32,000 bases of DNA from an archaeon GW2011_AR10 (GTDB lineage: Archaea > Iainarchaeota > Iainarchaeia > Iainarchaeales > GW2011-AR10). Within the stretch, counting starts at the first letter, position 1. Each line of letters begins with the position of its first letter. Where the stretch lies: positions 1,200,001 to 1,232,000 of the forward strand of contig CP010424.1 of the NCBI GenBank assembly GCA_000830275.1, written 5' to 3'. The position numbers and the translations under genes were made by a program. Positions 3,186-22,473 of this stretch are shown here, in pieces. The notes beneath the pieces are model-generated. The model was not told the DNA's origin. It saw nothing but the letters and a program-made list of their open reading frames with translations, and ran no database searches.

Positions 3186-4163
3186 ATGGCTGATTTAAAG
3201 GTTGATTTGCGGGACAGGAAGATCCTTTATTATCTGGATATAAATGCCAGGCAGCCTCTTTCGAAGATCGCCAAAAAGACTGGTTTAAGCAAGGAAGTTG
3301 TCAATTACCGCATCAACCGCATGCTGGATGAAGGCATTATCAGAAGCTTTTATGCCCGCATTGACACCTCAAAATTGGGTTTAACACTTTTCAGAACATT
3401 TATCAGAATGCAGAACCTCACCCCGCAAAAGGAAAAAGAGTTCATTGGTTACATTGCAAAGAACCCAAAAATCGGTTTTTTCACAAGAGTTGAAGGAAAT
3501 TTTGATTTTAACTTTATTTACTGGACCAAATCCGTTTCAGATTATTTTTATTTCTGGAAAGAGCTTAACATTAAGTTCGGAAAATTTATTGCAAAAAAGG
3601 AACTTCACATTCTCGAGTACTATGCAAATTTCCAGAAAGGTTTTTTGGTTGGAAAAAAAGACCTGTCAATTCCTTTCTTTGAATGCGGGTTAAAAGAAGA
3701 AATTGAGGTTGACAAAATTGATTATGATATGCTTAACATTCTCGCTGCCAATGGGAGGAAACCCCTGATTGAAATTGCGAAACAGTTGGGCATTTCCGAC
3801 AAGGTTGTTTCTTACAGATTAAAAAAACTTGAAAAAGCAGGAGTAATTCATTCGTACGGGGTGCAGCTGGCCCTTGATAAAGTAGGGCTTCATTATTACA
3901 AACTTCACCTGTTCCTGAAAAATTTTTCTGCGGAAAGATTTAATGCATTGAAAAACTTTGCAATTACAAATCCGGATGTGGTTTTCATTGATGAAGCTTT
4001 AGGCGGCCCAGACTTTGAAATCGAGCTTTACCTTAAAACAAAACAGGAGTATTATGCTTTTCTTTCGAAATTAAGGTACAAATTCTCTGATTTAATCCGC
4101 GACTTTGAAACCCTGTATTATCCAGAGGAATTCAAGCTGGTGCTTTTCCCGTGGAAAGGCTAA
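3186..4163 (+). CDS. tandem (two-module) Lrp/AsnC-family transcriptional regulator
   Basis: There are two AsnC-type winged-helix modules: DRKILYYLDINARQPLSKIAKKTGLSKEVVNYRINRMLDEGIIRSF and DYDMLNILAANGRKPLIEIAKQLGISDKVVSYRLKKLEKAGVIHSY. Each is followed by an alpha/beta-like region. Confidence 0.75.
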   Translation: MADLKVDLRDRKILYYLDINARQPLSKIAKKTGLSKEVVNYRINRMLDEGIIRSFYARIDTSKLGLTLFRTFIRMQNLTPQKEKEFIGYIAKNPKIGFFTRVEGNFDFNFIYWTKSVSDYFYFWKELNIKFGKFIAKKELHILEYYANFQKGFLVGKKDLSIPFFECGLKEEIEVDKIDYDMLNILAANGRKPLIEIAKQLGISDKVVSYRLKKLEKAGVIHSYGVQLALDKVGLHYYKLHLFLKNFSAERFNALKNFAITNPDVVFIDEALGGPDFEIELYLKTKQEYYAFLSKLRYKFSDLIRDFETLYYPEEFKLVLFPWKG

Positions 4164-4177
4164 TATCAATAAGAAAA

Positions 4178-4834
4178 TCATTCGGTAATTGCTTTCCCAA
4201 TCCTCACAATAGTTGCCCCTTCCTCTATTGCGACCTCAAAGTCATTGCTCATTCCCATGCTTAATTCCGGCAGCCTGAATTCCTCCGCCAGGTCAGCGAG
4301 CTTCTTGAAATAGAGCCTTGAGTCCTCTTTATTCTCGCTGAAAGGCGCCATTGTCATCAGGCCAACAATTCTCACGTTCCCGAAAGGAAGCTGCTTGTAC
4401 GTATCAAGAAATGAGGCAAGTTCCCCAGGTTTCAAGCCGTTTTTGCTTGCTTCACCTGAAACATTAACCTGCAAAAAAACTTTCTGTTGCTTGTCAAGTC
4501 CGTGCGCCGCCAACTGGATTTTCCTCAAAAGCTTGTGCGAGTCAACAGAGTGAATAACCTCGCATGATTGCACTGCTTCCATTGCCTTGTTTGACTGCAA
4601 GTGACCAATCAAATGCCATTCTGCTCCCTTAACTTTTTCTGCTTTTTTTACAAGCTCCTGCACTTTGTTCTCTCCAAAAACCTTCTGGCCAAAGGAAACA
4701 AGCTGGTTTGCCTGCTCCGCTGTCAAATACTTTGAAGCAATCAGCAGCTTCACATTGCTTGGCTTTCTGCCGCTTCTTTCGGCGGCACCTGCAATTTTTT
4801 CCCTTATTTTTTTCAGGTTATCTACTATATCCAT
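4178..4834 (-). CDS. yggS: YggS/PLPBP-family pyridoxal-phosphate homeostasis protein
   Basis: 218 aa. It has LIASKY (the PLP-binding Lys region), GENKVQE and WHLIGHLQSNK motifs and a C-terminal VRIG, all typical of the YggS family. Confidence 0.85.
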   Translation of the reverse strand: MDIVDNLKKIREKIAGAAERSGRKPSNVKLLIASKYLTAEQANQLVSFGQKVFGENKVQELVKKAEKVKGAEWHLIGHLQSNKAMEAVQSCEVIHSVDSHKLLRKIQLAAHGLDKQQKVFLQVNVSGEASKNGLKPGELASFLDTYKQLPFGNVRIVGLMTMAPFSENKEDSRLYFKKLADLAEEFRLPELSMGMSNDFEVAIEEGATIVRIGKAITE

Positions 4835-4859
4835 AAGAAAAAGTAAAGCAAAAAAATTG

Positions 4860-6962
4860 TTATTTCTTTTGCGTTGGCTTCACAAACCCGTGCCTTGGCC
4901 TGTAAATATCGCCTGCTTTCTCGAGCTTTGAAACGATTTCGTTGGTTTTTTCCTCGTCAATTCCAAGTGTTTTTGCTTCCTCTCTTACTTCTTCCAGTGG
5001 CACCATGTCAAGTTCAGATGCTTTTCCCTTGATTATGTTCAGCACTTTTCTCAGGTTTTCAACAACCACGTGGCTCTGCCCAGTAGTAATGAGGTCAAAG
5101 TCAATTTTGCCTGTCTCCTGGTCGGTTACAAGCTGCTCTAATGATGTCCGGAAAATCCTTATTGCCCTGTCAGTGTCCTGCAATTCAACCTCGTTGCTCA
5201 GTCTGACTCTGGCAGAAGCTTCGCTCATCCTAACCAAAGCCTCAAGCTGCCTGTGGGTTGCAGTGTAAGTTCCTTCCTTTCTTCCCTGCTCACGAAGGTT
5301 AACATAAAACTCTGTTATTGCATCAATTGTTTCCCCGCTCATAACAGGAAAACAGTTCTGCCTTGCGTAAGAAATAACCTTTTTCAGCATTTCAGCGTCA
5401 ATTAACGGCGTAATCCGTTTTTTCATTTCCTCGATTTCAGCAGAAGAAGATTTGGTGCCCTGCTTTTTCTGCTGGCGCATCATTTCACCTACTTGGTGGG
5501 TGCGCAGAATATGTGAAGCAATCTCTTCATCCTTTTTCTTGTCAAGAACATCCCTTATCAAGAAGAACACATCGAACCTGCTGAGAAGACTGGCAGGCAA
5601 ATTAATCTGCTCAATAAAGTTTTGGTATGGGTCGAACCTTGAATACTTTGGGTTTGCTGCAGCAAGAATGCTGGTTTCACTCTTAAACCTTGCTACAATT
5701 CCTGCCTTTGCAACGCTTACGGATTCCTGCTCTGCTGCTTCATGCAATGCACTTCTGTCCTCTGGATCCATTTTGTCGAGCTCATCAACCATGCAGATTC
5801 CCCCGGAAGCAAGCACTAACGCGCCAGCCTTCAGTGTCCAGCCGCCTTCCCCGAACTCGTCCTTAACAGCAGTGGCAGAAATTCCTGCACCGGTTGCAGT
5901 TTTTCCAGCAATGTAAATTCCTTTCGGCGCAATCTTGTTGACTGCCAGTAGAATTGCACTTTTTGCCAAGCCTGGCTCTCCAACAAGCAGGACATGAATG
6001 TTGCCCCTGATTTTGTTTTCCCCCGGCAGAATCTTTTTCACTCCGCCGAAAAGCTGCAATGCAATAGCTTCTTTTACGGCTTCATGGCCGTAAATGTTTG
6101 GCGCAATGCTCTGAATCAGCATCTGGTAAATGTTCTTGTTCGCTGCAAGCTTCTTTATTTCCTCTTCCTCTTCTTTTGAAATCTCAAGTTCATCGAATTC
6201 CCTAGCGGTTTCCTCCAAGTGAATTGCCTCAATGAACCTTCCGTAAACAGCGTTCTTTTCCTTCGGCGGCCTAAGCCTCAGCATCCCAGTAATAACTGTT
6301 CTGGCTCCAGGATAAACCTTGTTTACCATGTCCTCGCTGGCATAAACCTCCATGTTGGTTGCCTGCTCGCTTCCCTTCAATAACTCTAAAGGCTCCTGAA
6401 CCAGAATCTTCTGGTAATCAACGAACTCGGAGTCATCTGCTTTCAATGAAAAGTCACGGTGCTTGCACTCGCAGATGCTCGGCTCAGCTGTCTTCTGCGT
6501 TGACTGCAGCAATCTATAGGTGTTACCGCAGCGCCTGCACTCCCACACAGCCATTCTCAGTTTTGGCAGAACATCAGTTATCTGCCTTACAACGCCTTCA
6601 ACGCTAATCAATTTGCTTAAATGCTTTGAGCCAATGTCCCTCAAAATAACCAAGCTGTCCTTCGGCAGGTTAAAAACTCGAATGTATGGCTTGAATTCAT
6701 CAAGCTCCAGTGTTGGGACATCAATGCCCTGCATTGCTTCCTCTGCTGCAGCCAAAACCGCGTCAGGGTTTCTCAGCAGCTCATCCGCCAACTCAAAGTC
6801 AAAGTGCTCCAATTCAGTGAAATCAATGAAAAGGCTTTTTTTATCCGGATAGTGTTCCACGAGCTTCTCAATCTGCTTTTTGCACTGGCTTTCCAGAAAT
6901 GACTGGAATTTGCCGACAAAAGGGTTCTCGTGCACTGCCTCCAAAGCTTTCTGTTCAGCCAT
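4860..6962 (-). CDS. mcm: MCM replicative helicase
   Basis: ORF track 4860..7007 begins at a GTG; trimmed to ATG 6962 (MAEQKALEAV). It has a C4 zinc motif (CRRCGN...CECKH), Walker A (GEPGLAKS), Walker B (VDELDKM), the arginine-finger SRFD and a C-terminal winged-helix-like tail. No intein. Confidence 0.95.
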   Translation of the reverse strand: MAEQKALEAVHENPFVGKFQSFLESQCKKQIEKLVEHYPDKKSLFIDFTELEHFDFELADELLRNPDAVLAAAEEAMQGIDVPTLELDEFKPYIRVFNLPKDSLVILRDIGSKHLSKLISVEGVVRQITDVLPKLRMAVWECRRCGNTYRLLQSTQKTAEPSICECKHRDFSLKADDSEFVDYQKILVQEPLELLKGSEQATNMEVYASEDMVNKVYPGARTVITGMLRLRPPKEKNAVYGRFIEAIHLEETAREFDELEISKEEEEEIKKLAANKNIYQMLIQSIAPNIYGHEAVKEAIALQLFGGVKKILPGENKIRGNIHVLLVGEPGLAKSAILLAVNKIAPKGIYIAGKTATGAGISATAVKDEFGEGGWTLKAGALVLASGGICMVDELDKMDPEDRSALHEAAEQESVSVAKAGIVARFKSETSILAAANPKYSRFDPYQNFIEQINLPASLLSRFDVFFLIRDVLDKKKDEEIASHILRTHQVGEMMRQQKKQGTKSSSAEIEEMKKRITPLIDAEMLKKVISYARQNCFPVMSGETIDAITEFYVNLREQGRKEGTYTATHRQLEALVRMSEASARVRLSNEVELQDTDRAIRIFRTSLEQLVTDQETGKIDFDLITTGQSHVVVENLRKVLNIIKGKASELDMVPLEEVREEAKTLGIDEEKTNEIVSKLEKAGDIYRPRHGFVKPTQKK

Positions 6963-7451: not shown

Positions 7452-8258
7452 TTAATGAGCACTCTTTGTGTTCTCTAAAACAAGTTTCTGCTGTTCTATT
7501 GCTTCATTTTTCAATCGCTTTTTTGCAAGTTCACAATAAGTTTTATCTATCTCAATTCCAATACCTTTGCGCTTATTCAAGTAAGCAGCAATGAGGGTTG
7601 AACCACTGCCTAAAAAGGGGTCAAGCACTACATCATCCACAAAGCTAAACAATTTGATGCATCTCTGGGGCAATTCTAATGGGAAAGGCGTAGGGTGGCC
7701 AATTTTCTTTTTGCTTTCACCAGAAAAAGTCCAAACCCCATTTGTCCATCCCATAAACTCATCTTTCTTAATGTCTGAAATCCCACTGCCTGTTGTTTTT
7801 CTCCACTCATTTTTGTATAAAATAACAATTAATTCAACAGGGGCTATTACATATGGTGCTCTGGCACTCATCCAAGACCCCCACGCTGTCCGTCTTGATA
7901 TATTGCCCTCATTCCATATAATCGTTGAGTGATACTTGAAACCAACGCTTTTTGCTATGTTTGTTAAGTCTGCTCCAACGCTTTGCTGGCCATCTTTGTT
8001 TTTGTCTAAAGGTATGTTCAAACAAAAACGTCCATCATCTTTTAACCAATTAAAGCAACGGCTAAGCCACTTCTTACTAAAATCAAGGTAATCAGAATAA
8101 GATATTTTGTCATTGTGGCTATTGTACTTTATATCTACATTATAAGGCGGTGAAGTGATTATTAGGTCAATACTTTTGTTTTCTATGGCATCTGTAGAAA
8201 TAGCGTCATCATTAATTATTCTGATGTTATCGTGTGAAAAATAATTTTTATTCATCAA
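7452..8258 (-). CDS. beta-class N4-cytosine/N6-adenine DNA methyltransferase (SPPY motif favours m4C); no partner endonuclease seen
   Basis: Motif IV is ITSPPYNV near the N-terminus and motif I is VLDPFLGSGSTLIAA near the C-terminus (IV-before-I order = beta class). The gene is AT-rich: a spot count of line 7501-7560 gives 18/60 G+C. Confidence 0.85.
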   Translation of the reverse strand: MMNKNYFSHDNIRIINDDAISTDAIENKSIDLIITSPPYNVDIKYNSHNDKISYSDYLDFSKKWLSRCFNWLKDDGRFCLNIPLDKNKDGQQSVGADLTNIAKSVGFKYHSTIIWNEGNISRRTAWGSWMSARAPYVIAPVELIVILYKNEWRKTTGSGISDIKKDEFMGWTNGVWTFSGESKKKIGHPTPFPLELPQRCIKLFSFVDDVVLDPFLGSGSTLIAAYLNKRKGIGIEIDKTYCELAKKRLKNEAIEQQKLVLENTKSAH

Positions 8259-15735: not shown

Positions 15736-15837
15736 AGGGCTCGTGGTCTAGTGGCATGACGGATCCTTGGCGATGAATGCAAAATTAATGCTTTCACTTG
15801 AATGGATCAAATTGGGGGTTCGATTCCCCCCGAGTCC
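15736..15837 (+). tRNA. tRNA-Ala(GGC) with an intron of about 30 nt at or next to the canonical 37/38 site
   Basis: Folded by eye. The acceptor is GGGCTCG/CGAGTCC with the G3:U70 alanine identity pair. D arm GTCT-AGTGGCA-TGAC; anticodon stem GATCC/GGATC; loop TTGGCG giving anticodon GGC. The insert is about 15772-15801 with an internal helix TGAAxGC/GCxTTCA. Variable loop AAATT; T arm GGGGG-TTCGATT-CCCCC; discriminator A. CCA is not encoded. Confidence 0.85.
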
Positions 15838-15838
15838 A

Positions 15839-18794: not shown

Positions 18795-18890
18795 CGGCAG
18801 CAGTGCTTTTAATGTAGAAAACCCCATAAATAGGCTTAAAAACAGGAATTAAATTAATTATAACAGGCTCACTTTTTTGGAGGATTAATA

Positions 18891-19067
18891 ATGGTTAGAC
18901 AGGAGACTAAACTAAAGTGTATTAGATGCGGCTACTTCATTGTATTGGACAGCCCGAGAGCCAAAGAAGTCAGTTGCCCGAAGTGCTCGCAGCAGTGGAA
19001 ACTAATCAAAGAAGAAGACGAACTCTTTCTAGAACCGATTGAAACAATAACAGAAAAATCACCCTAA
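18891..19067 (+). CDS. 58-aa zinc-ribbon protein (hypothetical)
   Basis: Below the ORF-track cutoff. GGAGG lies 7 nt before ATG 18891. The product MVRQETKLKCIRCGYFIVLDSPRAKEVSCPKCSQQWKL has CxxC...CxxC. Confidence 0.5.
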   Translation: MVRQETKLKCIRCGYFIVLDSPRAKEVSCPKCSQQWKLIKEEDELFLEPIETITEKSP

Positions 19068-19118
19068 TTTCCTAAAAGTTGCTTTAAAATTTTTTCCCAC
19101 CAAGAAATCATTCAACCC

Positions 19119-19236
19119 AAAAGATACCTCGGCTTTTAAGTCGCGGTTATTGGCCTCGGTATCTTTTCCGTTGACGGGTTCATGACGTCCATTAAATGTT
19201 GGGATACCCCTGCCTTTAGGCATGGGAGGACGTCAT
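19119..19236 (+). other. two long perfect hairpins (structured RNA or leader of unknown function)
   Basis: AAAAGATACC (19119-19128) pairs with GGTATCTTTT (19158-19167). ATGACGTCC (19182-19190) pairs with GGACGTCAT (19228-19236), enclosing CCCTGCC-TTTA-GGCATGGG. A further 9-bp hairpin is CCTTTGCAC/GTGCAAAGG at 19339-19375. Confidence 0.4.
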
Positions 19237-19245
19237 TTGCTTGAA

Positions 19246-19265
19246 GGGCCTATGGTCTACCGGTA
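19246..19265 (+). pseudogene. orphan tRNA 5' fragment (acceptor 5' strand plus D-arm start)
   Basis: GGGCCTATGGTCTACCGGTA compared with the tRNA-Val 5' end GGGCCTGTGGTCTAGTGGTTA. GGGCCTA is the perfect complement of TAGGCCC at 21168-21174. No anticodon arm or T arm follows. Confidence 0.55.
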
Positions 19266-19441
19266 TGATTCATTCTAATTTTTTCAGACACCTCCAATTT
19301 AGAATTTTTTCTTAGGACTCTGATTTTCTCGGCTTAAACCTTTGCACGTCTGAATCTCTAATTTTTGTGCAAAGGATTTAATGCCTCCAAAATCAACAGA
19401 GACGTCCACGAAAAAATTCATCATTCATTGGAGGTGATTCG

Positions 19442-19576
19442 ATGAAAAATTTTAATTTTCAAATTCCCTCAAAGGGAGAACTCAGAAGAGCTCTAGGATT
19501 AGCTCACTCAAATCCAGAAGAACTAACTGACAGGGAGCTTTGGATTCTAGAAGAGTTTGGAGGAGATTTTCAGTGA
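19442..19576 (+). CDS. 44-aa hypothetical protein, first gene of the three-ORF cassette
   Basis: GGAGGTGA (19430-19437) lies 4 nt before the ATG. The product is MKNFNFQIPSKGELRRALGLAHSNPEELTDRELWILEEFGGDFQ. Its stop overlaps the next start (GTGA). Confidence 0.4.
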   Translation: MKNFNFQIPSKGELRRALGLAHSNPEELTDRELWILEEFGGDFQ

Positions 19577-19725
19577 GCTTTATTCTTCTATTTCTTTTTA
19601 GCTTGATTTTCTTTCCTCTGCTCTTTATTCTTGATGCATTTGGATTTAATGAAGAAGCATATGAGATAGCGAAATATCTAGTAGCTTTTTTCTTAGGAAT
19701 GCTTGTTTGGGAGTTGGTGTTATGA
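19573..19725 (+). CDS. 50-aa hydrophobic (two-TM) protein (hypothetical)
   Basis: Same frame as ORF track 19540..19725. The GTG at 19573 overlaps the upstream stop, and its own stop overlaps the next ATG (ATGA at 19722). Confidence 0.4.
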   Translation: MSFILLFLFSLIFFPLLFILDAFGFNEEAYEIAKYLVAFFLGMLVWELVL

Positions 19726-20867
19726 ATCCCGCACCGGAAATGAACCCTCAAATTCGATATAAATCTAAAAAACTAATTTCTTTTATGAAAAGCCTTTCTG
19801 GTTATACAATAGAAGAAAAAAGAGTATTGCTTGAAGATCCAAAACTATTTTTTAGAGCAATTAAAGAATCTCCAAAATACCTTTCTTGGAATTCTCTTGT
19901 CGAAGATGTTAGTTGTGCAAATACAACTTTGAAAAAGTATAGGCGAGGAGAGTTAACTATCCGAGGAGATATTTTCCTTAAACTTTTGAGTTATTTAAGT
20001 AAAAATCAAAAGCAAAGACTAATTTCCAAGATAAATTTAGTGAATTCTAATTGGGGTGCAATTAAGGGCGGTAAGCGAGGTTTTGCAGTAATAAAAGAAA
20101 AGTATGGTGAAAACTATTTGGAGATGCTAAGAGTCAAAGGTCAGCGAGCAAGTTTGAATAGCCCATTGTTCATTACCAAACCAATGGAAATTACTATCCC
20201 TTCAAGCATTACTATGGAAATTGCAGAGCTATTTGGAGCCTATCTTGGGGATGGAACTTTAACAAAATATTTTATGAGAATTGCAGGGGATAAGCGACTG
20301 GATAAGTATTATTTCATCTATCTTTCAGGATTAATCAAAAAGAATTTTGGATTGAGTTCAACCATAAAAGAGATAAGCCTTTCTACAAATCAACTTTGCT
20401 TGGAAATAAGATCAAAAAGATTTGTGGATTATTTCAGACATGTTTTTCAACTGAAAATAGGGAATAAAATTAGAAATTCATCAAAAATTCCTGAATTTAT
20501 TATAGAAGACAAGGAATTAGCAAAAGCGTGTTTGAGAGGGTTGATGGATACTGACGGATCTTTTTCAAGGAGGTCAACATATATGTGTTTAGCTTTTACG
20601 TCCCATAGCCCTATACTGCTAGGCCAAGTTCATAATCTTGGTTTAAAATTTGGGTATTTTTCCTATAAATTTAAAGATCAAGTAGGTTCTAATTCTTCTG
20701 GCAGAATAAAGAAGTATTTCTCAGAAGTTGGCAGTTCAAATTTGAGGCATATAGTCCGTTACCATGAACATCTTAAAAATAACCGTTTTTTGTATTCTGA
20801 GGAAACATTAAAATATTTTCCTGAATATCAAAATCTTATGCTGCCATATTATGGGCCTGTGGTCTAG
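19722..20867 (+). CDS. double-motif LAGLIDADG homing-endonuclease-like protein with an N-terminal helical (HTH-like) extension
   Basis: ORF track 19707..20867, trimmed to ATG 19722. The two LAGLIDADG motifs are ELFGAYLGDGTL and CLRGLMDTDGSF, about 100 aa apart. The gene is AT-rich (spot counts 16/60 and 20/60 G+C). Its last 5 codons and stop lie inside tRNA-Val. Confidence 0.8.
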   Translation: MNPAPEMNPQIRYKSKKLISFMKSLSGYTIEEKRVLLEDPKLFFRAIKESPKYLSWNSLVEDVSCANTTLKKYRRGELTIRGDIFLKLLSYLSKNQKQRLISKINLVNSNWGAIKGGKRGFAVIKEKYGENYLEMLRVKGQRASLNSPLFITKPMEITIPSSITMEIAELFGAYLGDGTLTKYFMRIAGDKRLDKYYFIYLSGLIKKNFGLSSTIKEISLSTNQLCLEIRSKRFVDYFRHVFQLKIGNKIRNSSKIPEFIIEDKELAKACLRGLMDTDGSFSRRSTYMCLAFTSHSPILLGQVHNLGLKFGYFSYKFKDQVGSNSSGRIKKYFSEVGSSNLRHIVRYHEHLKNNRFLYSEETLKYFPEYQNLMLPYYGPVV

Positions 20868-20963
20868 TGGTTAGAGAGCTTAGGAAAAATTAATCTTGGC
20901 TCTCCCGCAAATGACGTTACCTTGACATGGTAAAGATCGGCAGTTCGATTCTGCCCAGGCCCA
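20853..20963 (+). tRNA. tRNA-Val(GAC) with a non-canonical intron of about 38 nt in the D arm
   Basis: Folded by eye. Acceptor GGGCCTG/CAGGCCC; D arm GTCT-AGTGGTTA-G[insert about 20875-20912]GAC; position 26 is G. The anticodon arm TTACC-TTGACAT-GGTAA gives anticodon GAC at 20924-20926. Variable loop AGATC; T arm GGCAG-TTCGATT-CTGCC; discriminator A. The insert contains the helix GAGAGC/GCTCTC. Removing it leaves a 73-nt cloverleaf. Confidence 0.8.
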
Positions 20964-20974
20964 CTTTAAATCAG

Positions 20975-21142
20975 GTAATTCCACCGTTTTCAAACGGTAG
21001 TCAGGTAAAACTTTGACAAATCAAGTGATTGCTCCATATTTCATTTTGTCAAAGTTTTAGTGGAATTACTACTGTCAAGAACCACTTGCTTGTTTTGGAA
21101 TTTTATAAACATGCCACTGACTTTAGTCGGTGGTTCTTGACA
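20975..21142 (+). repeat. twin-hairpin element, copy Y
   Basis: Hairpin 1 is GTAATTCCAC (20975-20984) paired with GTGGAATTAC (21060-21069). It encloses CCGTTT/AAACGG and a perfect 15-bp hairpin TAAAACTTTGACAAA/TTTGTCAAAGTTTTA. Hairpin 2 is TGTCAAGAACCAC (21073-21085) paired with GTGGTTCTTGACA (21130-21142). Confidence 0.6.
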
Positions 21143-21150
21143 ACAATTTA

Positions 21151-21175
21151 GGCGGTTCGACTCCGCCTAGGCCCA
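21151..21175 (+). pseudogene. orphan tRNA 3' fragment (T arm plus acceptor 3' strand plus discriminator)
   Basis: GGCGG-TTCGACT-CCGCC-TAGGCCC-A compared with the tRNA-Val 3' end GGCAG-TTCGATT-CTGCC-CAGGCCC-A. The trailers are also similar. No matching anticodon arm lies immediately upstream. Confidence 0.6.
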
Positions 21176-21238
21176 CTAATTTAGCTAGGAAAACAGTATG
21201 GCCTGCATTTAAAGTTTTTTTTGTAAGCTATTTATTTT

Positions 21239-21460
21239 ATGGGCAAATCCTATAAAATCGTTGTTGAAAAAGGATTTGACGGCTATTTAGTTGCAGAGGT
21301 GCCAGAGTTCCCAGGCTGTTATACTCAAGCGAAAACCATGAAAGAACTCATGTACAATGCCAAAGAAGCGATTGAACTGTATCTTGAGTCGGAAAAAGAA
21401 TTGAAAAGAAGGCCCCAGAAAAGGTTTTTAGGCATAAAAGAAGTTGTCATAAATGCCTAA
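21239..21460 (+). CDS. hicB: HicB-family (UPF0150) antitoxin-like protein
   Basis: KIVVEKGFDGYLVAEVPEFPGCYTQAKTMKELMYNAKEAIELYLE is the typical HicB N-terminal domain. 73 aa. Confidence 0.8.
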   Translation: MGKSYKIVVEKGFDGYLVAEVPEFPGCYTQAKTMKELMYNAKEAIELYLESEKELKRRPQKRFLGIKEVVINA

Positions 21461-21509
21461 ACTAAAACCGGTTTCTTCAAAAATTAATACTTTGTTGTTG
21501 CACAAGTAA
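21453..21509 (+). pseudogene. hicA: truncated hicA remnant (18 codons)
   Basis: The ATG overlaps the hicB stop. MPKLKPVSSK matches the usual HicA N-terminus, but the frame stops after 18 codons and runs into the 3' end of the convergent gene at 21484. Confidence 0.5.
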
Positions 21510-22473
21510 GGGTTTTTTCTTTCTGCTTTTTTGCAACTTTTTTTTCTAAAATTAGCTGGTCAAGCTTTAAGCAGACAGTGCAAGTGGAAGTCGTTGTTGC
21601 ATTACCGCACCTCTCACAATACCTTGCTTTTCCATGCTCCGCGGTTTTCTCGAGCAGCGGCTTCAATTGCTCGAAAGAACGGAGCACTGAAAACTTTGTT
21701 CCAGGCAAATTTGCTTCCATTTTGTTCAGCATTTCACGAAAATAATTTCGCTTTGCTTGGCTGGAGAAAGGGCAGCACTCATCCGAGTAATGAGGCAGCT
21801 CTTTTAATGCCGCGAAAGCAATCACTTCTTTTTCAGGGCTTTCATACAATGGTTTAATTCTTGGCACCAATCCCTTGATTCCGTTGCTGCCAACAACTGC
21901 TCCCAGTCTTGCCATTCTGCTGAAATCGTTGTCAAAAAAGTTCATGCAGATGCTCTGCACTTCGTCATCCAAGTTGTGGCCTGTTGCAATTCTGTCAGCT
22001 CCAACATCAACTGCTCCCTTGTTGAGGAGATGGCGCCTGAAAACGCCGCAAAAAGAGCACGTGCTTCCCAAGCCGGAATTCAAATCAATTTTTTCCTTTA
22101 CTTCCTCCATGGAAACTGCAAGCTCTTTCTTGTAAGAGTAAACAGTGAAAGCAATGCACAGTTCCTTGCACAGAGCTTTTCCTTCCGCAAGTGCTTTATC
22201 CCTGTAGCCCGGGATTCCTTCATCAATCATTACTGCTTCAATTTCGTTGACACGAGAAAACATTTTATGTAGAAGATAAAGGGTTGTCGCTGAATCCTTG
22301 CCGCCTGAAACCCCGACAGCAATTTTTTCCCCTGCCTTAACCATTCCATGTTTTCTGGTGGTTCTCCGCACGCGGTTCTCGAAAAAGTATAGGAAGTGCT
22401 CCTCGCAGAAGTTGTGTGGGCCGTAAGGCAAAAGCATTTTTGCTTCCTTGCTGCAGCGCTCGCATGAAACCAT
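21484..22473 (-). CDS. PP-loop tRNA 2-thiolation enzyme (Ncs6/NcsA/TtuA family)
   Basis: It has an N-terminal CxxC...C zinc motif, the PP-loop VGVSGGKDSATT, then GHNLDDE and a C-terminal CERCG...CTVC zinc ribbon. Confidence 0.8.
   Translation of the reverse strand: MVSCERCSKEAKMLLPYGPHNFCEEHFLYFFENRVRRTTRKHGMVKAGEKIAVGVSGGKDSATTLYLLHKMFSRVNEIEAVMIDEGIPGYRDKALAEGKALCKELCIAFTVYSYKKELAVSMEEVKEKIDLNSGLGSTCSFCGVFRRHLLNKGAVDVGADRIATGHNLDDEVQSICMNFFDNDFSRMARLGAVVGSNGIKGLVPRIKPLYESPEKEVIAFAALKELPHYSDECCPFSSQAKRNYFREMLNKMEANLPGTKFSVLRSFEQLKPLLEKTAEHGKARYCERCGNATTTSTCTVCLKLDQLILEKKVAKKQKEKTLTCATTKY

Follow-up and report, generated by a model that had tools for sequence, protein, structure and literature searches.

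Between positions 19246 and 21175 of a 32,000-nucleotide (nt) stretch of DNA from the archaeon GW2011_AR10 (CP010424.1; this whole stretch is called the window, and coordinates refer to it unless a related locus is named), a complete gene for a valine transfer RNA, tRNA-Val(GAC), follows an open reading frame (ORF) for a LAGLIDADG endonuclease, and both are enclosed by two incomplete tRNA pieces, termed the 5′ and the 3′ orphan. The order of the features is 5′ orphan, conserved leader, two small ORFs, LAGLIDADG ORF, complete tRNA-Val, twin hairpins and 3′ orphan (Table 1). As argued below, the region probably arose when a free-standing LAGLIDADG homing-endonuclease cassette, bringing along a replacement tRNA-Val, disrupted a tRNA-Val(GAC) gene, the orphans being the ends of the displaced, intron-less gene. 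The cassette is taken to begin at about 19273 and to extend at least to 20963, possibly as far as about 21142. All positions that a first-pass annotation of this DNA had given for the orphan pieces, for the ends of the complete gene and for the overlaps between the ORFs (GTGA at 19573, ATGA at 19722) were found again when the sequence was read anew.

Table 1. Coordinates of the features between the two orphan tRNA pieces, listed from 5′ to 3′ (aa, amino acids)
Feature	Position	Strand	Remarks
5′ orphan GGGCCTATGGTCTACCGGTA	19246-19265, extended to ~19270	+	tRNA-Val positions 1 to ~25
Conserved cassette leader	19291-19441	+	~150 nt; fold z = -6
Small ORF 1, 44 aa	19442-19576	+	Starts right after the ribosome-binding site; from the ORF list
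Small ORF 2, 50 aa, hydrophobic	19573-19725	+	Overlaps ORF 1 (GTGA at 19573) and the endonuclease ORF (ATGA at 19722)
LAGLIDADG endonuclease gene	19722-20867	+	Pfam PF14528 (LAGLIDADG_3)
Complete tRNA-Val(GAC), G7:C66, read as replacement copy	20853-20963	+	Rfam tRNA, 55.4 bits
Non-canonical D-loop intron, 38-40 nt	~20874-20911	+	Between tRNA positions 21 and 22
Twin-hairpin spacer, complete tRNA to 3′ orphan	20974-21142	+	Hairpins 20974-21070 and 21073-21141
3′ orphan GGCGGTTCGACTCCGCCTAGGCCCA	21151-21175	+	Complete T arm, acceptor 3′ strand TAGGCCC, discriminator A, U66

The 5′ orphan comprises the acceptor 5′ strand GGGCCTA with an A at position 7 and a complete D arm (GGGCCTA TG GTCT ACCGGTA TGAT), whose 3′ stem strand TGAT carries the similarity beyond 19265 to 19269, and it has no intron. 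The acceptor strands of the two orphans pair perfectly with each other, including A7:U66, which the first-pass annotation had judged hard to obtain by chance. In pattern searches, a degenerate 25-nt pattern of the 3′ end matched nothing but the complete gene and the 3′ orphan, and a 14-nt pattern of the 5′ end likewise matched only the complete gene and the 5′ orphan, with 0.00 and 0.02 matches, respectively, expected from shuffles. The match of the orphans to tRNA-Val is thus above chance. With a profile built from 22 tRNA-Val genes, nhmmer aligns 19246-19272 to tRNA positions 1-28 and 21137-21175 to positions 32-72 (E = 0.012), in support of the earlier proposal that the orphans are the two ends of one gene; since they tile the molecule in this way, they can be ascribed to one intron-less tRNA-Val which was split near positions 25-31 and whose middle has decayed. 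Compared with the complete allele the orphan allele carries paired changes, A7:U66 against G7:C66 as well as one T-stem pair, and therefore appears to have been a working allele before breakage. A decayed extension of the 3′ orphan may reach 21137 and include a CTTGACA remnant of the anticodon loop, and only 21151-21175 was counted as firm. The 3′ strand of the second twin hairpin overlaps this possible remnant.

In the complete gene, the Rfam alignment of 20853-20963 reveals a 40-nt insertion in the D loop and the anticodon GAC, and the gene folds more stably than expected (z = -4.2). An intron at the same tRNA position is present at four related loci (L037, L084, L087 and L088, of the comparison set described below). 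A canonical bulge-helix-bulge structure could not be drawn for the 38-nt intron of the window, and a GUGG/CCGC helix beside the 3′ junction is the sole part that recurs in relatives. Over the entire window Rfam detects two tRNAs, tRNA-Ala(GGC) and tRNA-Val(GAC), and a low-threshold scan of 18800-21500 found no further RNA family. ARAGORN had been proposed in the first-pass annotation as a check: with default settings it called no tRNA in the window and missed both genes, tRNA-Val because of its D-loop intron, and with relaxed intron settings it returned dozens of spurious calls, so that Rfam and the custom tRNA-Val profile were used in its place. The cassette had also been described as AT-rich, in agreement with a G + C content of 33-37% over 19200-21000 as opposed to 40-47% in the flanks.

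Perfect acceptor pairing along with an intact D arm and T arm would likewise be expected if the orphans belonged to a second functional tRNA, either as exons to be spliced over a distance of 1.9 kb or as halves to be joined in trans, with another tRNA gene nested inside it. DPANN archaea are known for split and multi-intron tRNAs (PMC3218864, PMC4033280). However, when the pieces were joined in silico, ARAGORN called a tRNA in 452 of 1456 junction combinations with inconsistent identities, calls that arise because the acceptor, D and T arms are good; those inspected comprised a Val with a 25-nt unpaired extra arm, a Lys(CUU) with two mismatched stem pairs, and four-base anticodons. Nor do the flanks of the pieces pair, the gain on cofolding being -11.0 kcal/mol against a mean of -12.2 for shuffled flanks, with 132 of 200 shuffled-flank controls at least as good, and pairs between the pieces are confined to five in the acceptor stem and a weak stretch of eight. 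In addition, the remnant anticodon GAC would duplicate that of the nested gene, and the single kind of fragment found at most related loci cannot make a tRNA. On account of the defective joined tRNAs and the lack of a flank helix, the giant intron or split tRNA, which the first-pass annotation had listed as an alternative, was rejected for want of a credible junction and is regarded as highly improbable.

The product of the LAGLIDADG ORF matches PF14528 with 39.1 bits (cut-off 22.5) and consists of an N-terminal helical domain of about 165 aa, for which no matches were obtained, and a two-motif core containing LFGAYLGDGT and LRGLMDTDGS. Residues G176, D177, G178, D278 and G279 are invariant among 28 homologues, both catalytic aspartates being kept. 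The AlphaFold2 model (predicted local distance difference test score 86.5) has the pseudo-dimeric alpha-beta-beta-alpha-beta-beta-alpha fold, and Foldseek matches the core to the TliVMA intein endonuclease (E = 2e-9), I-Tsp061I and I-DmoI. The predicted fold is that of active monomeric homing endonucleases, and the protein is taken to be a putative nuclease. The Foldseek results further include WhiA and the bI3 maturase, two LAGLIDADG proteins whose roles are not those of a nuclease, and in view of these matches a non-nuclease role has to be considered as well. The earlier description of a two-motif LAGLIDADG ORF that ends within tRNA-Val was correct except in one detail, since four and not five codons, followed by the stop (GPVV*), coincide with tRNA positions 1-15, the stop TAG being D-loop sequence. 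Translation may start at the ATG at 19785 instead of 19722, the former being the start called for the identical database protein. A conserved C-terminal motif, LKY(F/Y), is encoded by the TATA-like sequence TTAAAATAT (20808-20816), about 45 nt upstream of tRNA position 1, and the promoter of the carried tRNA may be embedded in the coding sequence of the endonuclease.

Upstream of these genes lies the conserved leader, the beginning of which, CACCTCCAAT (19291-19300), is able to pair with ATTGGAGGTG (19428-19437), a segment that includes the ribosome-binding site; the sequence GGAGGTGA reported earlier for 19430-19437 was confirmed. A central hairpin (19339-19375) is situated between two inverted TATA-like boxes, GGCTTAAACC and GGATTTAATGCC, and its stem shows compensatory change, CCTTTG/CAAAGG in the window corresponding to CCTAAC/GTTAGG in L005. 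The leader is 86% identical at the nucleotide level to that of L012, while the proteins are 41% identical, and it is also recognisable, with compensatory stem changes, in L002 and L005 (L012 2810-2960; L002 5760-5895; L005 3580-3715). Judged by the start of the homology with L012, no more than about 20 nt separate the left edge of the cassette from the end of the 5′ orphan. Small ORFs resembling ORF 1 (FxYQ..S..G) occupy the equivalent place in L002 and L005; for ORF 2, L088 shows 69% identity over the region, and a hydrophobic ORF of comparable kind is found in L005. The leader may be a regulatory RNA or an operator, and by analogy with phage homing endonucleases it might provide translational control, in which case the ribosome-binding site would be hidden in read-through transcripts but not in those started at an internal promoter.

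For comparison, 80 loci from reference genomes and several from metagenomes were collected and labelled L001 onward. The endonuclease belongs to a large family of proteins of 300-380 aa from DPANN archaea and from bacteria such as those of the Candidate Phyla Radiation (CPR) and Omnitrophota; a word-indexed protein search gave 234 matches, and an exhaustive search gave 525 representative clusters at E <= 1e-30 and 2174 at 1e-10. Of the 76 loci whose ORF could be used, about 64 have a tRNA whose first position falls in the interval from 37 nt upstream to 31 nt downstream of the ORF end. The identity of this tRNA follows the subdivision of the family: a close archaeal group adjoins tRNA-Val with the anticodon GAC or in some cases CAC, another archaeal group, with proteins of about 300 aa, adjoins tRNA-Gln(CUG), and a bacterial group adjoins tRNA-Ser, often between two genes for Ser isoacceptors. 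Many family proteins have GPVV, GPMV, PVV or WSSG as their last residues, the in-frame reading of tRNA 5′ ends, and the junction with a tRNA is therefore a conserved property of the family and not a local accident. Degenerate and shortened copies of the endonuclease also exist (L006, L027, L056, L061, L067).

The bacterial homologues, which come from CPR, Omnitrophota and Planctomycetota bins (e.g., L043, L055, L080), lie directly upstream of tRNA-Ser, often within a Ser cluster with Ser(UGA) on one side and Ser(CGA) on the other. In L055 and L080 the ORF is flanked by long repeats that were considered as orphans and discarded, as they are two complete tRNA-Ser isoacceptor genes.

An endonuclease ORF with both a functional and an orphan copy of a segment of the host gene was found at at least 20 related archaeal loci. 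Fragments of the 5′ end lie 20-130 nt before the ORF in L009, L017, L025, L029, L032 and most loci of the Gln group, and decayed ones are present in L011 and L024 of the Val group. In the Gln group, the 5′ fragment AGCCCCATAGTCTAGTGGTCAA (positions 1-21) is located about 40 nt before the start codon and is followed by a conserved TATA-like box, ATAGTAAAATATATAAA, while a complete tRNA-Gln follows the ORF. Fragments of the 3′ end, beginning at tRNA positions 24-30 or at the T arm, come directly after the complete tRNA in L004, L017, L031, L033, L036, L040 and L041, and in several of them (L033, L036, L040) the acceptor is unlike that of the adjacent complete tRNA, which indicates that two different alleles have been juxtaposed. 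A mirror arrangement, in which a complete tRNA-Val(CAC) is followed by the ORF and then by a 3′ fragment, is seen in L010, L014 and L020. Both kinds of fragment occur together in L017, as in the window; most related loci carry only one kind, and many relatives seem to carry only a tRNA segment and not a whole tRNA.

Within the Gln subfamily (L047-L079; e.g., L049, with the fragment at 3880-3901 and the tRNA at 4832-4905), the stop codon of the ORF is the D-loop TAG of tRNA-Gln, and several of the tRNAs have introns at 21/22. In locus L040 of a nanoarchaeote (Nanoarchaeota; 3393-5008), three tRNA-Val-like pieces corresponding to positions 24-68, 11-72 and 28-72 come after a complete tRNA-Val and look like a stack of successive events.

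Stray tRNA pieces can also be left by integrases, and a 1.8-kb element between a 5′ tRNA fragment and a complete tRNA is on record for Caldiarchaeum (PMC3293823). The orphans of the window might accordingly be two independent integrase-type scars, one at the 5′ and one at the 3′ part of tRNA-Val, left by elements that have since been largely deleted. Against this, the ORF list and Pfam reveal no integrase or recombinase between or beside the pieces, the sole long ORF between them being the LAGLIDADG gene; the compensatory A7:U66 pair assigns both pieces to one allele; the pieces tile one tRNA with little overlap, as would result from a single insertion; and the pattern recurs only beside the LAGLIDADG family. 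This alternative, which the first-pass annotation had also raised, hence keeps a small share of probability, but it is less economical than a single cassette and, with no integrase present, we regard it as very unlikely.

Further evidence for the insertion of a cassette comes from sites that lack it. The neighbours of the locus in the window are genes for ribosomal protein L15e, a TtuA-like PP-loop enzyme and a HicB-like protein; these, taken with the closest genomes, assign the window to a DPANN archaeon of the Iainarchaeum (Diapherotrites) group. A metagenome scan with the TtuA-like protein returned three loci, of which two served as empty sites. In L084, a locus on a 742-kb contig that is syntenic with the window, a coiled-coil gene and a small zinc-ribbon gene are followed, after 70 nt, by tRNA-Val(GAC) and the TtuA-like gene; no cassette interrupts the tRNA-Val at this site, and there is no LAGLIDADG gene. 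The tRNA-Val(GAC) of L084 contains a 41-nt intron at the same position of the D loop as in the window. L086 likewise has no endonuclease and possesses an intron-less tRNA-Val beside the TtuA-like gene. By their host proteins these two are the closest relatives of the window (TtuA 62-68%, L15e 69% identity), while relatives at about 51% TtuA identity carry endonucleases that are 60-63% identical to that of the window; as the nearest relatives are empty and farther ones occupied, the presence of the endonuclease is patchy.

The insertion of a cassette with a replacement tRNA-Val, which had also been the preferred interpretation in the first-pass annotation, is thus favoured because the orphans are non-random, correctly ordered and oriented, and able to pair with each other, and because the family adjoins tRNA genes, orphans recur, empty sites exist, the catalytic motifs are invariant and the G + C content is low.

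Several observations weigh against this interpretation or limit it. The close relatives L001, L002 and L012 have no 5′ orphan, and upstream of its T arm the 3′ orphan can be aligned in two incompatible ways, as a remnant of either the anticodon loop or the D stem. The divergence of the endonucleases (41-68% identity) roughly tracks that of the host proteins, and synteny is kept across the class, so that long residence with occasional loss is compatible with the data to the same degree as repeated homing; within the archaeal class the endonuclease indeed looks long-resident at the tRNA-Val locus and not newly arrived. Moreover, it is the complete tRNA and not the orphan that is closest to the gene of L084, with the same intron position and an identical anticodon arm, while the D loop of the orphan resembles the endonuclease-linked tRNA of L002, so that either allele may have been the resident one. 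Finally, cleavage and homing are predicted activities of the enzyme.

Some of these points are what would be expected of a domesticated or resident LAGLIDADG gene, inherited vertically beside tRNA-Val and possibly serving the host in a transcription-factor or maturase-like role, with orphans that arose by local duplication, by recombination between tRNA-Val alleles or by decay and not by cuts of the enzyme. In its favour, the order of endonuclease, tRNA-Val, TtuA-like gene and L15e is maintained throughout the class, endonuclease identity is similar to host-protein identity, most copies of the endonuclease are full length, the leader is very strongly conserved, and WhiA and the bI3 maturase are among the results of the fold search. 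However, unlike in WhiA, both catalytic aspartates are invariant, the two closest relatives are devoid of the gene, and the orphans of L033, L036 and L040 carry foreign acceptors. Subfamilies residing at different tRNA species (Val, Gln and Ser), the degenerate copies and the low G + C content of the cassette speak against residence as well. All in all, a resident gene is considered unlikely, though less so than either the two scars or the split tRNA.

If the region did originate by insertion of a cassette, the following course of events may be envisaged. The enzyme would cut tRNA genes without a cassette in the region from the D arm to the anticodon stem, and repair would copy the cassette from the donor, this being the direction of transfer that we infer. 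Without homology upstream of the cassette the broken ends would stay behind as fragments, and once flanking a cassette such fragments could act as homology arms in further homing. Cell viability would be maintained by the carried tRNA, whose D-loop intron may interrupt the recognition site and hence protect it. The enzyme thereby appears to solve the problem of insertion into an essential gene, namely by carrying a replacement tRNA or tRNA segment.

As to the intron, the end of the 5′ fragment tracks the intron position of the adjacent tRNA: in L009, L011, L024 and L025 both are at 14/15, and in L032 and the Gln group both are at 21/22. For the window the values are 25-28 for the fragment end and 21/22 for the intron. 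In a small sample of 18 loci scanned with Rfam, intron-containing tRNAs that do not adjoin the ORF have their introns in the anticodon loop where ARAGORN could place them. These positions fit an intron that interrupts the target of the enzyme and would so protect the carried tRNA. However, many endonuclease-bearing loci have intron-less tRNAs, so that immunity based on introns cannot be general. A derivation of the short introns as scars of a deleted cassette was also considered and dropped, the intron ends having no similarity to the left end of the cassette. As a more far-reaching and tentative proposal, which we regard as possible but would not expect to hold, the clade might disrupt tRNA genes quite generally in ultra-small archaea: by cuts in the D-arm to anticodon-stem region followed by its own insertion during repair, it would create fragments and would select for or create protective non-canonical introns at the cut site, in the manner of collaborative homing but with a protein-spliced archaeal intron. 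If true, this would show concretely how non-canonical tRNA introns and fragmented or split tRNA genes, whose origin in Archaea has long been debated, could have come about.

Integrase-bearing elements are known to target tRNA genes, and homing endonucleases have been described from ribosomal RNA (rRNA) introns, inteins, phages and organelles. Free-standing homing endonucleases of phages include SegB in the tRNA cluster of T4, and collaborative homing refers to the pairing of a free-standing endonuclease with an ORF-less intron, as in cyanophage psbA, the donor allele being protected by the intron at the cut site. A further paper (PMC13096335) mentions SegB as well. Like those of phages, the endonuclease gene of the window is situated beside its presumed target and not inside it, and bacterial members of the family lie between tRNA-Ser genes; the differences are that the genomes are cellular, of DPANN and CPR type, that the intron is a presumably protein-spliced archaeal tRNA intron and not a group I intron, and that fragments of the target are left.

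The closest parallel in architecture may be drawn with the mobile ORFs (mORFs) of fungal mitochondria, described in atp6 of Allomyces macrogynus and in atp6, atp9, cox2 and nad3 of Glomus (PMC3630166), which carry a replacement for the end of the gene and leave the native end as an orphan (PMC3630166; also PMC7487136). Both systems have a free-standing endonuclease (LAGLIDADG or GIY-YIG in mORFs) within a host gene, carry a copy of the displaced segment and keep the host gene functional; in mORFs the native segment becomes an unexpressed orphan and the carried one can be foreign. In contrast to the mitochondrial protein genes that host mORFs, the host gene here is a tRNA gene of archaea and bacteria, and the cassette carries its 5′ end or the whole tRNA instead of a C-terminal coding end. 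Furthermore, unlike in mORFs, both ends of the old gene are kept in the window, the ORF ends inside the tRNA, and a non-canonical tRNA intron is associated.

Integrase elements in tRNA genes, of the SSV or pNOB8 type (PMC9897764, PMC3293823), have in common with the cassette the tRNA as target, the restoration of an intact tRNA by the carried segment and a partial copy that marks the far end. They differ from it in that the window has no integrase, but a LAGLIDADG nuclease on an element of about 1.6-1.9 kb, and in that the fragments of the window are different halves of one gene and not a direct repeat of one segment. With the archaeal intron-encoded endonucleases I-DmoI and I-Tsp061I and with those of inteins, the protein shares fold, catalytic motifs and archaeal host; unlike these, the gene lies outside an rRNA intron or intein, has the extra N-terminal domain, and is free-standing and fused to the 5′ edge of a tRNA. 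LAGLIDADG genes have been described in rRNA introns of DPANN and CPR organisms (PMC6125680, PMC8172020), while a search of open-access papers and preprints found none in these groups that is associated with a tRNA gene or a piece of one.

If confirmed, such cassettes would explain stray tRNA fragments that confuse the annotation of tRNAs in these genomes and would represent a case of horizontal replacement of tRNA alleles. They would also connect mobile endonucleases with non-canonical tRNA introns in a way that can be tested, and would offer new meganucleases that are naturally specific for tRNA genes.

A few further observations concern the surroundings of the cassette. The twin hairpins are very stable and nested (z = -7.95), and amongst all sequences fetched a copy was found only in L089, a 4.4-kb metagenome contig of the Joint Genome Institute. 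Positions 745-2543 of this contig are 99.7% identical to 19754-21550 of the window, a block with the endonuclease (Met22 onward), tRNA-Val, the twin hairpins, the 3′ orphan and HicB that also takes in the final 67 nt of the TtuA-like gene. On either side the block is flanked by sequence that is unrelated to the window and has a lower G + C content (29-39%), with the TtuA tail fused to another ORF; the block is either a recent transfer or an assembly chimera.

Two more strong hairpins, AAAGATACC/GGTATCTTT at 19120-19166 and ATGACGTCC/GGACGTCAT at 19182-19236, are located between the zinc-ribbon gene and the 5′ orphan, where the counterpart of this spacer (19120-19236) in the empty-site relative L084 is 70 nt only. 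The 10-mer TTTAGCTAGG occurs just 3′ of the 3′ orphan (21181-21190) and, in L084, just upstream of tRNA-Val (7690-7699, minus strand), which may be chance. The only other tRNA of the window, tRNA-Ala(GGC) at 15737-15838, contains a canonically placed anticodon-loop intron of about 30 nt.

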